Assembly: GCA_003963145.1 (NCBI GenBank) | Contig: RXJJ01000001.1 | Span: 217,358 to 281,357 of the forward strand | Length of the DNA stretch: 64,000 nt | Direction of reading: 5' to 3' | Origin: Bradyrhizobiaceae bacterium | GTDB lineage: Bacteria > Pseudomonadota > Alphaproteobacteria > Rhizobiales > Xanthobacteraceae | Shown here: piece by piece, positions 15,680-45,804 of the stretch | Position numbering within the stretch: position 1 is the first letter of the stretch | Layout of the letters: each line of letters begins with the position of its first letter | Position numbers and translations under genes: made by a program | The notes under the pieces: model-generated | Told to the model about the DNA's origin: nothing | The model's input: only the letters and a program-made list of their open reading frames with translations | Database searches by the model: none

Positions 15680-18073
15680 TCAATCCTGAATTTTGGAGAA
15701 ATCGGCAACTAAACGGGTAGCGTTGCGGATTTCACTCAGTAGGCAAAGGCGGTTTTCCCTCACCTTCGGGTCGTCATCGTTGACCTTCACCTTGTCGAAA
15801 AAGGCGTCCACGGCGGGGCGCAGCTTCGCCATCGCGCTCATGGCGGCGGCGAAGTCCTCCTTGGCCACGGCGGCGCCCGCTTCGGCCTTCGCCTGATCGA
15901 TGGCGACGGCGAGCTTTTTCTCTTCATCGAGTTTGTAGAGCTTGGCGTCCGGCGCGCCGCCATAGCTGCGCTTGTCCTTCTTCTCCTCGATGGAGAGGAT
16001 GTTGGACGCGCGCTTGGTGCCCGCCAGAAGGTTCTTGCCGTCATCGGTATCGAGGAATTTGCCGAGCGCGTCGACCCGGCGGACAACCATCAGAAGGTCG
16101 TCCTGCCCCTCAAGAGCAAACACCGCGTCCACCAGATCGTGCCGCGCGCCCTGATCGCGGAGCTGGACTTTGAGGCGGTCGGCGAAGAAGGGCAGCAAAT
16201 CTCTTACCACTTCATAGCGTTTCGCAAAGGGCGTCATCGTTAGCTCGCCGGGTGCCATTGCCCACGCTTTGCCACTTGTCCAAGCCTTCGTAATAACTCT
16301 GTATTTGCGCTCAGGGTCCGATTCCGTTTCATCCGTGATCCGAGGACTTGCCTCAGACTTAAAGCCGGCATCACCAAGCCGTTCAGTTTTTTCTGCACCA
16401 AATCTCAGGGTGCCGACCCAAATCTCGATGTAATTTTCATAAGCAAACTCAACTATGCGTCGCAGCTTGAACTCCATGCTGTTATCAAGAATGATCCTAA
16501 TCACACCCAGCGCCGCACGCCTCAGCGCAAACGGGTCCTTCGATCCTGTCGGCTTCTCGTTGATCGCCCAGAATCCTACCAGCGTGTCGATCTTGTCCGC
16601 GAGCGCGACCGCAATCGCGACCGGATCGGTCGGCACGCGGTCGTTCGGACCCTGCGGCTTGTAGTGATCCTCGATCGCCTGCGCGACGCTGGCATCCTCG
16701 CCCTGCGCCAGCGCGTAGTATTTGCCCATCAGGCCCTGCACCTCGGGAAATTCGCCGACCACTTCGGTGAGCAGATCGGCCTTGGCGAGCTTCGCCGCAC
16801 GCTTCGTCTTTTCAACGTCGGCGCCCACAAGCGGCGCGATCTCGGCGGCGAGCCGCTCGATGCGCGCGATCCGCTCGGCCTGCGTGCCGAGCTTTTCGTG
16901 GAACACGATGTTCTCGAATTTCGGCAGCCGGTCTTCGAGCCTTGTCTTGAGGTCCGTCTCGTAGAAGAACTTCGCGTCGCTCAGTCGCGCGCGGATCACC
17001 CGCTCGTTGCCCGCGATAATCGCCTTCCCGCCGTCGCTCGCCTCGATGTTCGAGGTGAGGATGAAGCGATTGGCGAGCTGATCTCCGCTCCCCCCGCCTG
17101 CGGCGGGGAGGGGTCGGGGGTGGGGGGAAGCCGCGGCGAGCGAGGAAGCGCCCCCCACCCTTGATCCCTCCCCACCACTATCGTGGGGGGAGGGAAACTT
17201 CACCACGAAGCATTTCTGGTTGTTGCGGATGGTGGCGCGGATCACCTCGCCCGGGATTTTCAGAAAGCTCTCGTCGAACGAGCCCATCAGCACCACCGGC
17301 CATTCGACAAGGCCCGCAACCTCGTCGAGCAGCCCTTCGTCCTCGACCAGTTCATAGCCCTGCGCGAAGGCGAGGTTTCTCGCCTCGGTGAGGATGATGT
17401 CCTTGCGGCGCTGTGGATCGAGCACGACCTTCGCCGCTTCCAGCTTCGAGACATAATCGTCGAACCGGCGCACCGAGAACTCGCCGGGCGACATGAAACG
17501 ATGCCCGCGCGTGGTCTGGCCGACTGCGACGCCCGGCATCTCGAATTTGACGATGTCGGGGTCTTCGGTCTCAAGCCCGAAGGTCGCGATGATCGAATGC
17601 AGCGGCCGCACCCAGGTCAGCGCGCCGTGACGCGCCGAGAGTTCGCCCCAGCGCATCTGCTTCGGCCACGGAAAGGTGCGCACGACAAGCGGCAGGATGT
17701 CCGCGATGACGTCGATGGCGGGACGGCCCGGCTTTTCGATCAGCGCGATGTAGAAATCGCCTTTCGGGTCCTTCTGGATTTTCGCTTCGTCCAGAGACTT
17801 CAGCCCGGCGGCTTTCAGGAATCCTTGAATGGCCGCGTCCGCGCCGCCAACCTTCGGACCCTTGCGTTCCTGCTTGAGATCGGGCTGGCGCGCGGGAATG
17901 CCGTGCACCGTCAGCGCAAGGCGGCGCGGCGTCACGAACGCCTTCGCGCCTTCATAGACGAGGCCCTCGGCGACGAGCTTGTCGGTGACCATCTTGCGCA
18001 GATCGTCCGCCGCCTTCGCCTGCATGCGCGCGGGAATTTCCTCGGAGAACAGTTCGAGCAGAAGATCTGGCAT
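15680..18073 (-). CDS. glyS: Glycine--tRNA ligase beta subunit carrying two in-frame inserts
   Basis: [64 protein letters not shown]; uninterrupted frame. Confidence 0.95.
17088..17195. repeat. Palindromic repeat element inserted in frame in glyS
   Basis: Two inverted arms around a 23-bp spacer; 17103-17127 is identical to 18162-18186 of the DUF559 unit. Confidence 0.85.
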
Positions 18074-18078
18074 TGGTT

Positions 18079-18516
18079 TTACTCCCCTCCCCGCACGGCG
18101 TCACCCTCCCCTTGAGGGGGAGGGTCGCCTGCCGAAGGCAGGCGCGCTTCCCCTCCCCCTTGCGGGGAGGGGTCGGGGGTGGGGGGCAACGCAGATTGAA
18201 TAGCTGCCAGCACGCCGTCGATATTGCTCAGCACATCATGATTCCAGAAACGCAAAACCCGGTATCCTCTTTCTTCGATGCGCCGGGTCCGATCCAAATC
18301 CGCCGCGTTGTCCGAATGCTGGCCGCCATCCAGTTCGATGACGAGTCCGGCGCGCAGGCTGGCAAAATCGACGACGAAAGCACCGATCACGGCCTGACGC
18401 CGGAAGTGCGAACCGCTCAGAACGATGTCGTGTCGAAGCCGATGCCACAACGTCCGCTCGGCATCGGTCGGCTGTGCACGCATCCGGCGGGCAAAATCTT
18501 GCAGATGATCGTCCAT
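18079..18516 (-). CDS. DUF559 / Vsr-like endonuclease domain protein
   Basis: [56 protein letters not shown]; the C-terminus is read through the repeat. Confidence 0.88.
18103..18144. repeat. Two extra hairpins next to the DUF559 unit
   Basis: ACCCTCCCC-TTGAG-GGGGAGGGT (18103-18125) and CGCCTGCC-GAA-GGCAGGCG (18126-18144). Confidence 0.7.
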
Positions 18517-18590
18517 GGCTGACGATTGAAACACACAGTCTATCGGCTGTGGACCCCCACCCCCGACCCCTCCCCGCAAGGGGGAGGGGA
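18149..18590. mobile_element. Putative mobile unit: DUF559 nuclease gene within perfect 37-bp terminal inverted repeats
   Basis: 18149-18185 TCCCCTCCCCCTTGCGGGGAGGGGTCGGGGGTGGGGG is the exact reverse complement of 18554-18590; mobility itself is inferred. Confidence 0.7.
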
Positions 18591-18629: not shown

Positions 18630-19577
18630 TTACTCCGCCCGTCCCGCTTCGGTGTGCACCCATGCCTCGCCGCAGGCTTTCGCCAGTTCGCGCACGCGCA
18701 GGATATAGCTCTGCCGCTCGGTGACGGAGACCACGCCGCGCGCGTCGAGCAGGTTGAACACGTGGCTGGCCTTGATGCACTGGTCGTAGGCCGGCAGCGC
18801 CATCAGATGGCGCTCCTTCTTGCCGGGTTCTTTTTCGTTTTTTTGCCATCCCGCGGCGAGATAGTCGTTGCACGCCTTCTCGGCCATCCTGAACTGCTCG
18901 AACAGCATCGCGGTGTCGGAATATTCGAAATTGTGCCGCGAATATTCCTGCTCGGCCTGCAGGAACACGTCGCCATAGGTCACCTTCTCGGCGCCCTCGC
19001 GGCCGTTGAAATTGAGATCGTAAACACGGTCGACGCCCTGCACGTACATCGCGAGACGCTCGAGACCGTAAGTCAGTTCGCCCGACACCGGCGCGCATTC
19101 GACGCCCGCGACCTGCTGGAAGTAGGTGAACTGCGACACTTCCATGCCGTCGCACCAGCACTCCCATCCCAGACCCCACGCGCCGAGCGTCGGGCTTTCC
19201 CAGTCGTCCTCGACAAAGCGCACGTCATGCAGCGCGAGGTCGACGCCGATGGCTTTCAGCGAATTCAGATAAAGGTCCTGGATGTCGGGCGGCGAGGGTT
19301 TGAGGATCACCTGAAACTGATAGTAATGCTGCAGGCGGTTCGGATTCTCGCCATAGCGGCCATCCTTGGGACGGCGCGAGGGCTGCACGTAAGCCGCATT
19401 CCAGCGTTTCGGCCCCAGCGCGCGCAGCGTCGTCGCCGGATGGAATGTGCCCGCCCCCACTTCCATGTCGTAGGGCTGCAGGATCACGCAGCCATAATCG
19501 GCCCAGTAACGCTGCAGCGTCAGGATAAGGCCCTGAAACGATTTTTCGGGCCGCATGTGGCTGGGCAGGGAATCCAT
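18630..19577 (-). CDS. glyQ: Glycine--tRNA ligase alpha subunit
   Basis: [56 protein letters not shown]. Confidence 0.96.
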
Positions 19578-19847
19578 GATGTTTTTCGATGTGCCGGGGT
19601 CGGATTTGCCGGGACCGTATCGGTGCGGTCCCTCAATATCAAGACACGTCAACCATCGCGAGCCGCGTAAACCATCAATTCCAACGCCCTGTTAACCGCA
19701 GTTTCATCGCCGATCAAATGCAACCGATTCCGTTAGGAACTGCGCTGCTATGCCGGACTGATCGAACGAGAAGACCGGCATCAAGCCGGCCCGCCCTTTT
19801 CGTCCGCTGCGCGTGGGGCGCCGGACACGGATCAGAAAGGCCGGACC

Positions 19848-33095: not shown

Positions 33096-33250
33096 TCTTC
33101 CCCCTCTCCCCTTGTGGGAGAGGGTGCTGAGCCGCGAAGTGGCGAAGCGGGTGAGGGGTTGTCTCAGCACACGATGGGAATCCCCCTCACCCGGCTCGAT
33201 CTCGTTCCACTCGATCTCGCCACCCTCTCCCACAAGGGGAGAGGGGAAGA
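33096..33250. repeat. Gene-less palindromic element (CCCCTCTCCCCTTGTGGGAGAGGGTG arms), copy 1
   Basis: 33101-33126 is the exact reverse complement of 33221-33246; inner GGGTGAGGGG/CCCCTCACCC pair. Confidence 0.85.
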
Positions 33251-45655: not shown

Positions 45656-45804
45656 CTTTTCCCCTCTCCCCTTGTGGGAGAGGGTGGCGAGATCGAGTGA
45701 AACGAGAACGAGCCGGGTGAGGGGTAGGTTGAGCGACTAGTCAGCACCCCTCACCCGCCTTCGCTTCGCTCAGGCACCCTCTCCCACAAGGGGAGAGGGG
45801 AAAG
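45656..45804. repeat. Gene-less palindromic element (CCCCTCTCCCCTTGTGGGAGAGGGTG arms), copy 2
   Basis: 45661-45686 and inverted 45775-45800; near-identical to 33096-33250 in the opposite orientation. Confidence 0.85.

Follow-up and report, generated by a model that had tools for sequence, protein, structure and literature searches.

A palindromic element in frame within glyS

The gene glyS, encoding the beta subunit of glycyl-tRNA synthetase (GlyRS), occupies positions 15680–18073 on the minus strand of a 64,000-nucleotide stretch of contig RXJJ01000001.1 (assembly GCA_003963145.1, a Bradyrhizobiaceae bacterium); this whole stretch is called the window below. By the list of open reading frames (ORFs) and on translation, glyS is a single open frame of 797 aa, with Pfam matches to tRNA_synt_2f (2.6e-182) and to DALR_1, the DALR anticodon-binding domain. 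A GC-rich, two-armed palindromic element (108 bp) lies in frame inside it at 17085–17195. Across this element the gene codes for 41 Pro/Gly/Ser-rich residues between CFVV and LANRF; in an alignment of 34 GlyS genes, the resulting loop (KFPS...SGDQ; codons 292–332; 17078–17200, minus strand) stands in place of the ancestral RDPKTGK.

The two arms (17085–17127 and 17151–17193) are 43 nt each and 74% complementary, and they face inward across a 23-nt spacer (17128–17150). Arm 1, on the plus strand, comprises a hairpin CTCCCCCCGCC-TGC-GGCGGGGAGGGG (17088–17113), a TC linker, and a G-rich third-strand segment GGGGGTGGGGGG (17116–17127). Arm 2, on the minus strand at 17151–17195, is more decayed: CCCCCCACCCTTGA is followed by a hairpin TCCCTCCCCACCAC-TAT-CGTGGGGGGAGGGA, and the core carries three mismatches. 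Positions 17103–17127 are identical to 18162–18186 over 25 nt, the final 25 nt of a repeat pair at 17086–17127 and 18145–18186. The initial annotation of the window, made from its letters, had reported the open frame with its 41 residues, the arms facing each other around their spacer, and the 25-nt identity; translation agrees with the first, and the other two were verified.

Within the window, four sites match the 23-nt arm core GGGGAGGGGTCGGGGGTGGGGGG at up to three mismatches, against 0.00 expected from shuffles, and the 3.86-Mb genome (32 contigs) holds the same four only, even with up to four mismatches. Since genomes of the genus (taken as Afipia) carry only 0–9 arms of this subfamily, the idea of an abundant repeat was rejected. 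As DNA, the element folds with z = −4.9 against shuffles in ViennaRNA, which models hairpins only; as mRNA, it reaches −85.7 kcal/mol (z = −5.8). Four of its six reading frames lack a stop codon, so any frame-keeping insertion would probably be readable. An intein or intron was considered and set aside, with no splicing motif or ribozyme fold in Pfam or Rfam: Pfam returned GlyRS domains only for the GlyS protein, and an Rfam scan of the element gave no match above the gathering score, its sub-threshold miRNA-like hairpin hits being judged spurious.

A DUF559 cassette at the glyQ/glyS junction

The two remaining copies of the arm, at 18164–18186 (plus strand) and 18553–18575 (minus strand), bracket a 145-aa DUF559 ORF (18079–18516, minus strand; Pfam DUF559, 1e-33). 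Its product is Vsr-like, of the PD-(D/E)XK fold, and the closest solved structure is PDB 3HRL, an "endonuclease-like protein" (1.9e-18). The ORF runs through the right-hand arm and stops 5 nt ahead of the glyS ATG; directly upstream of it lies glyQ, encoding the GlyRS alpha subunit (18630–19652, minus strand; Pfam tRNA-synt_2e, 7e-141). In the arms of the cassette a hairpin CCCCTCCCCC-ttgc-GGGGAGGGG is followed by TC-GGGGGTGGGGG, and the glyS element consists of that layout twice. By its layout, then, the glyS element is the DUF559 cassette without the gene.

In 11 genomes of the genus a DUF559 cassette of 500–575 nt sits exactly at the glyQ/glyS junction, always in operon orientation (one is cut by a contig end); in relatives without it, the end of glyQ lies 1–6 nt from glyS. 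Three cassette subtypes, A, B, and C, are told apart by the sequences of their end hairpins and loops. The resident of the window is of type A, with terminal inverted repeats at 18147–18186 (right, hairpin plus third strand; plus strand) and 18553–18590 (left; minus strand). Between it and glyS, at 18082–18146, are what appear by eye, against the B and C cassettes of relatives, to be remnants of earlier cassette ends. The stretch at 18082–18098 resembles a B-type end, an assignment kept tentative because the stretch is short; a hairpin at 18104–18124 together with a gcctgcc..ggcaggc hairpin at 18125–18146 resembles, again by eye, a C-type end. Such C- and B-type leftovers downstream of the A cassette would mean that cassettes have replaced one another in turn at this junction.

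The DUF559 ORF overlaps the glyS start or stops a few nucleotides before it (TAAATG, TGATG), both in the window (18073–18081) and at loci L002, L003, L008, L171, and L173. Its stop codon occupies the place that the glyQ stop holds in cassette-less genomes, which may allow translational coupling. A literature search for DUF559 together with inverted repeats gave no link except one line of a table, in a paper about programmed inversions.

Ancestral loop and insert subtypes in the genus

We searched 40 related genomes with GlyS and added further loci. A short loop of 6–7 residues (RDPKTGK or a close variant) is present in 16 of the 26 readable GlyS genes of the genus and in all eight from other families of the order; the short, DPKTGK-like loop that the initial annotation had given for rhizobial GlyS is thus borne out, and on this alignment it is ancestral. 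The insert replaces rather than merely adds: 4–5 ancestral codons (PKTG) are missing from filled alleles, so the empty alleles cannot derive from filled ones by deletion. The same annotation had a non-autonomous copy landing in a tolerant loop. The in-frame position at the site of a 7-residue loop, modeled as a disordered hairpin tip, agrees with this; the event was not a simple addition, PKTG having been lost.

Further species of the genus share this insert, as do Nitrobacter winogradskyi and Bradyrhizobium erythrophlei, and so it was not a recent local hop within this genome. This distribution also bears on whether the loop is an assembly chimera with the DUF559 arm at 18149–18186, for which a 32-contig draft with an identical 25-mer 1 kb away gives some cause. 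The in-frame insert recurs in many independent assemblies of three genera, where it has a spacer of its own and a second arm that differs from that of the neighboring cassette; the N. winogradskyi copy lies on a 1.9-Mb contig, and the frame is intact. We regard a chimera as next to impossible.

Insert and cassette subtypes were compared by alignment score. The insert of the window scores 82–89 against type B cassette ends and 52–53 against its own resident type A cassette. B inserts behave in this way (82–94 against B ends, 48–60 against A cassettes), and at locus L002 the equivalent of arm 1 matches the terminal 46 nt of a type B DUF559 cassette with one mismatch. A type A insert (PSLPPPLRGRVGEGG..., in a different reading frame) is found in four other genomes of the genus; its best match is to type A ends, with A inserts scoring 64–76 against A ends and 49–57 against B. 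The description of the insert as the DUF559 unit minus its gene therefore holds for the gene-less, two-armed form, but the nearest cassette type is B, and the resident A cassette is a weaker match.

Insert and cassette also go together across genomes: the insert at this site (site 1) is present in 9 of 11 genomes of the genus with the cassette and in 0 of 13 without (Fisher p = 4e-5). Cassette state changes at least seven times over the GlyS tree and insert state at least six; the insert accompanies the cassette in 4–5 independent pairs and opposes it in none, which with so few pairs gives a sign test of ~0.06. A second GlyS loop, FALEG|QDDLL (equivalent to about codon 655, in the anticodon-binding domain; site 2), holds a type A doublet in L031 (G048) and L032 (G047), each in the same reading frame as the site-1 copy of that gene. 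The window has the short form at site 2.

Conservation of the arms and history of the insert

Arm and flank conservation was compared in three species of the genus plus Nitrobacter. At third codon positions, 5 of 31 sites are variable in the arms against 31 of 69 in flanking glyS (Fisher p = 0.007); when all positions are counted, the figures become 7 of 93 against 49 of 207 (p = 0.0007). For the spacer, a hand count over the three genus species carrying the B insert gives 5 variable positions out of 22. To judge from these substitutions, the arms, and not the peptide as such, are constrained or homogenized at the nucleotide level. A structural constraint or recognition by a protein could account for this, as could gene conversion that draws on the cassette 1 kb away.

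With the variable parts of GlyS masked, insert types A and B are scattered over the tree. Insert-bearing genes fail to form one clade even in their 65-codon flanks, where a single clade is rejected for A (p = 0.002) and borderline for B (p = 0.065). Because the flank trees do not unite these genes, neither vertical inheritance nor long-tract co-transfer would explain the distribution, and the history is one in which the element was acquired repeatedly, one subfamily gave way to another in place, or recombination acted over short tracts. In a sliding window along glyS the nearest neighbor keeps changing, and the two windows adjoining the site tend toward a genome with the same insert type. This hints at a co-conversion or homing tract, which we do not claim, given that the flank trees fail to unite the insert-bearing genes. 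Neither GlyS site 1 nor site 2 showed a target-site duplication or a clean boundary, and the junctions differ between lineages; transposition is accordingly not demonstrated.

These observations bear most directly on an origin by recombination, in which the loop would have been filled by template switching or gene conversion, with the cassette ends 1 kb upstream as donor, and homologous recombination would then have spread filled alleles between species. Several of the patterns above would follow: an insert subtype equal to that of the adjacent cassette, the restriction of the insert, within the genus, to cassette-bearing genomes, homogenized arms around a spacer free to vary, the shifting neighbors along glyS with same-type genomes next to the site, and the missing target-site duplication. 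Yet the flanks within 65 codons do not group insert-bearing genes, doublets occupy the same loop where no cassette is nearby (see below), and the genome of the window pairs a B insert with an A cassette. We consider this origin unlikely, though still to be reckoned with.

The same conservation could instead mark a useful insert, either an mRNA hairpin that tunes glyS against glyQ translation or a peptide loop that modulates GlyRS. Arms conserved beyond synonymous expectation, the very stable mRNA hairpin, and persistence in three genera all speak for a use. Most congeners and all outgroups nevertheless do without the insert, and it decays by in-frame deletions; unrelated subfamilies in different frames fill the same loop, so no particular peptide would be needed, and the loop is modeled as disordered. 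Usefulness is a very improbable explanation.

Recurrence at the same loop beyond the genus

The loop region was searched against 5.8 billion proteins, and loops were parsed in the best 120 GlyS clusters, a set ranked by similarity to the query and so favoring type B. Eight peptide classes occupy the loop in these clusters, with in-frame lengths of 18–58 residues. Class B, the type of the present insert, accounts for 72 clusters (18–55 residues, all in frame), the shorter forms reading as a series of deletions, that is, decay; class A accounts for 10 (40 residues), and six more Pro/Gly-rich classes for 25 (43–58 residues). The short ancestral loop of 7 residues is found in 3 clusters, and the loop was not parsed in 10. 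Named sources among these best 120 clusters include N. winogradskyi, B. erythrophlei, and a Methylocystis sp.

DNA was examined for five of these loci. In N. winogradskyi (L171), B. erythrophlei (L173), and one metagenome assembly (L187), glyQ and then a B cassette lie upstream of glyS, and the loop holds a B insert, a decayed B insert, and a C-like doublet, respectively. In a second metagenome assembly (L186) glyQ abuts glyS with no cassette, and the loop holds a doublet of the TCTCCC type, an arm variant described below; the Methylocystis locus (L172) has neither glyQ nor cassette adjacent and holds another TCTCCC-type doublet. On these sequences, one GlyS loop has been taken by at least five DNA-verified repeat subfamilies. 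The doublets of L172 and L186, with no cassette beside them, imply that the cassette is not needed in cis.

The parsed loops bear on whether the doublet is what is left of a full DUF559 cassette that once stood in frame in glyS and lost its nuclease ORF by internal deletion in place. The spacer beside the better arm does resemble the final ~20 nt at the coding end of type B DUF559 (insert, CATCGTCCACCGCCGCTT; cassette, CATCGCCGAACG-CG-TT), and in-frame deletion series are common at the loop (47 residues to 31, 22, and 18). A DUF559 domain, however, is on record in 0 of the best 120 GlyS clusters, and short-spacer, gene-less doublets are common in intergenic DNA of the genus, which makes them units in their own right. 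We judge an in-place remnant improbable.

At the nucleotide level, an exact 21-mer of the arm (hairpin half plus third strand) was found in more than 120 stretches across GTDB, mostly from alphaproteobacteria, where many of the copies are gene-less doublets. The 21-mer also turns up in metagenome-assembled genomes labeled Chloroflexi, Planctomycetes, Bacteroidales, Saprospiraceae, and Clostridia (L055, L058, L059, L080, L087, L090, L109, and L116); in such genomes of distant phyla it is usually single and not a doublet.

Triplex-motif arms and other copies in the genome

Each arm reads as pyrimidine stem, loop, purine stem, linker, and a mirror-symmetric G-rich segment; in arm 1 this is CCCC..-TGC-..GGGGAGGGG-TC-GGGGGTGGGGGG. 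Each G-rich tail is a mirror image of the purine strand in the hairpin to which it belongs (GGGGAGGGG/GGGGGTGGGG, GGGAGAGGG/GGGTGAGGG, and GGGGGAGGG/GGGAGGGGG), and four arm variants follow, by eye, a mirror rule in which G stands opposite G and T or A opposite A. Among asymmetric stems, which are the informative ones, the third strand fits the mirror image only in 12 and a direct repeat only in 3. The mirror rule is the rule for a purine-motif triplex, and we therefore file the arms, as a matter of sequence class, with the intrastrand-triplex repeats (TMECO/BoxC/PIT); the triplex itself presumably forms. Holder et al. (2015) describe the TMECO/BoxC repeats of Escherichia coli as "always located intergenically," with mobility functions beside them "never found" (PMC4666352). 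A mutated control oligonucleotide in that paper implies a TMECO motif close to CCCTCTCCCCTTTGGGGAGAGGGTTAGGGTGAGGGG. As far as this motif is known, through the mutated control oligonucleotide only (PMC4666352), it is matched very closely by the TCTCCC-type arms of this genome, CCCTCTCCCC-ttgt-GGGAGAGGG...GGGTGAGGGG; the glyS arms represent a single-A variant. Br-REP1 and Br-REP2 of Bradyrhizobium (PMC5082802) were compared as candidates and are different sequences.

By our count the genome holds ten gene-less doublets and three DUF559-bearing units, with more doublets in congeners. Nine of the gene-less doublets are of the TCTCCC type (108–158 bp). Beyond the cassette of the window, two DUF559 paralogues (C14:147619–147972 and C1:329792–330103), 42–48% identical to the DUF559 protein of the window, are bracketed by inverted TCTCCC-type arms, and a fourth DUF559-like domain, on C8, has no arms. 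The segment C26:329406–329995 was entertained as a fourth nuclease unit and rejected, being a doublet plus a solo hairpin. Two intergenic, gene-less TCTCCC-type doublets lie in the window itself, at 33102–33245 and 45662–45799, each with hairpin, linker, GGGTGAGGGG, spacer, and inverted copy.

The glyS element is not the only doublet in a coding frame. In a UvrD helicase (C14:9612–9741; L174) a TCTCCC-type doublet lies in frame between the DEYQD and VGDDDQSIYGWRGA motifs and splits the Pfam UvrD-helicase match; the match is continuous through this segment in 4 of the 9 genus relatives with a match and is split in 5 of 9 and in all outgroups. In an HrpB helicase of another genome of the genus (G015; L038:1430–1590), a doublet lies in frame at residues 470–523, between Helicase_C and the connector/HrpB_C domains. 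Counting in-frame copies, 2 of the 10 doublets of this genome would by our count be translated. Two candidate in-frame ORFs of the same genome (609 aa on C32 and 718 aa on C1) proved to be spurious antisense frames; in relatives, candidates other than HrpB and the uvrB of L042 lay upstream of a likely start or had no Pfam support.

Position of the insert in GlyRS

A GlyS search of the genome, which is rated 99.83% complete, found glyS in single copy, and no dimeric GlyRS in it reaches the family cut-off. As the sole GlyRS of the genome, the insert-bearing enzyme must, on this gene content, work. By homology to 7YSE, the insertion site falls between residues 290 and 296 of the E. coli GlyRS beta subunit, within the B3 domain as bounded at residues 216–340 (PMC8464048). 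In an AlphaFold2 model built with 55 homologues (mean predicted local distance difference test score, pLDDT, 72.9), residues 298–330 have a pLDDT of ~31–36 and no secondary structure, and they sit between confident strands at 289–292 and 333–341. The insert is thus predicted to be a disordered extension of a beta-hairpin tip.

Interpretation and relation to known systems

The reading we favor, and hold to be likely, is that the glyS element is a gene-less doublet of triplex-motif arms, a selfish or neutral passenger tolerated by translation rather than an adaptation. The element would have displaced 4–5 codons of a beta-hairpin tip in the B3 domain; it would survive there because its length preserves the reading frame, stop codons are absent from four of the six frames, and the loop projects from the fold. 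It would then be translated as a 41-residue disordered Pro/Gly/Ser loop while the cell's only GlyRS goes on working. We infer translation and tolerance from the open frame and the gene content, and we likewise infer any part that the DUF559 nuclease or recombination played in the arrival and spread of the element.

Several observations weigh against this reading. Insert-bearing genes do not form one clade even in their immediate flanks, and neither target-site duplication nor clean boundary marks the two GlyS sites. Loop doublets occur in L172 and L186 with no adjacent DUF559 cassette, and outside the genus a DUF559 gene stands beside the arm in only 2 of 80 sampled arm loci, a count from single-query tblastn of low sensitivity. 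The conservation of the arms, finally, could signal a function, which would weaken the word neutral.

A broader proposal, possible but doubtful in our view, is that DUF559 nucleases and triplex-motif arms form a mobile nuclease–repeat partnership, a functional analogue of RAYT/REPIN based on the Vsr fold. Cassettes would home to fixed sites, the glyQ/glyS junction among them, and rely on the operon of the host to be expressed; gene-less doublets would owe their movement or their uniformity to action in trans; and the hairpin loop of GlyS B3 would be favored as a target, beyond mere tolerance. If true, the partnership would account for arms that outconserve the synonymous sites of an essential gene, for at least five subfamilies at one loop, and for a 21-mer across distant phyla.

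Among known systems, the favored passenger reading finds its closest functional parallel in the Rickettsia palindromic elements (RPEs), reportedly described by Ogata et al. in 2000 as "Selfish DNA in protein-coding genes of Rickettsia." The likeness lies in palindromes of ~100–150 bp in frame in housekeeping genes, read as extra surface peptides with function kept, and present or absent among relatives. The comparison had been drawn in the initial annotation, and its in-frame part stands for glyS, UvrD, and HrpB; in copy number the parallel fails, this subfamily being low-copy (0–9 arms per genome) unlike RPEs. Sequence and structure are also unrelated, with GC-rich triplex-motif arms in free-living alphaproteobacteria; here, moreover, the arms also bracket a nuclease gene, and one loop is taken by several subfamilies. 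Homology to RPE families is, we presume, very unlikely given composition and host.

With the TMECO/BoxC/PIT repeats the element shares its arm layout, and paired "palindromic" copies are likewise described by Holder et al. (PMC4666352). The E. coli repeats are intergenic and have no nearby mobility gene (PMC4666352), whereas here an essential gene contains a doublet, presumably translated, and a DUF559 nuclease gene has identical arms at its two ends. REPIN/RAYT systems resemble the present one in having one protein gene flanked by inverted hairpin repeats alongside a population of gene-less inverted doublets, and each DUF559 paralogue of this genome has its own arm variant. The partner, however, is a Vsr-like PD-(D/E)XK protein and not a Y1 transposase, and copies number tens at most, not hundreds; a RAYT as partner gene was rejected, since Y1_Tnp (PF01797) has no match anywhere in this genome.

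Miniature inverted-repeat transposable elements share terminal inverted repeats with a larger gene-bearing element, as the doublet shares arms with the ends of the DUF559 cassette; they differ from the present case in that GlyS sites 1 and 2 show no target-site duplication and the cassette's sole gene, DUF559, is no recognized transposase and is not known to transpose. Vsr-like homing endonuclease genes (I-Bth0305I) offer the precedent of a small Vsr-fold nuclease gene at the same precise site in some lineages only, here the glyQ/glyS junction, but no intron, intein, or known cut site is involved and the glyS element has no nuclease gene. By analogy, then, the glyS element appears to work like an RPE, to be a triplex-motif repeat in structure, and to parallel REPIN/RAYT in architecture, with DUF559 in the place of RAYT.

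The case places triplex-motif repeats, described as intergenic and without a partner protein (PMC4666352), inside the sole gene of an essential translation enzyme, and it would extend the RPE-like pattern beyond obligate intracellular bacteria. It also provides a natural experiment on which positions of an aminoacyl-tRNA synthetase tolerate 20–58 extra residues. The link between the arms and a DUF559 cassette at a fixed operon junction makes the movement or maintenance of BoxC-type repeats directly testable.

Other length variation in glyS

Short inserts without arms occur at both GlyS sites, NRDAEGTPVLENA-like at site 2 (L003, L013, and L020) and AASRTSLDDAAQAP at site 1 (L006); they could be fully decayed elements or unrelated insertions. 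A further segment of glyS, window positions 16208–16468 (residues ~536–622; E. coli residues 511–519), differs in length and sequence in nearly every genome of the genus, from 0 to ~90 residues, and in the window it has no repeat arms.

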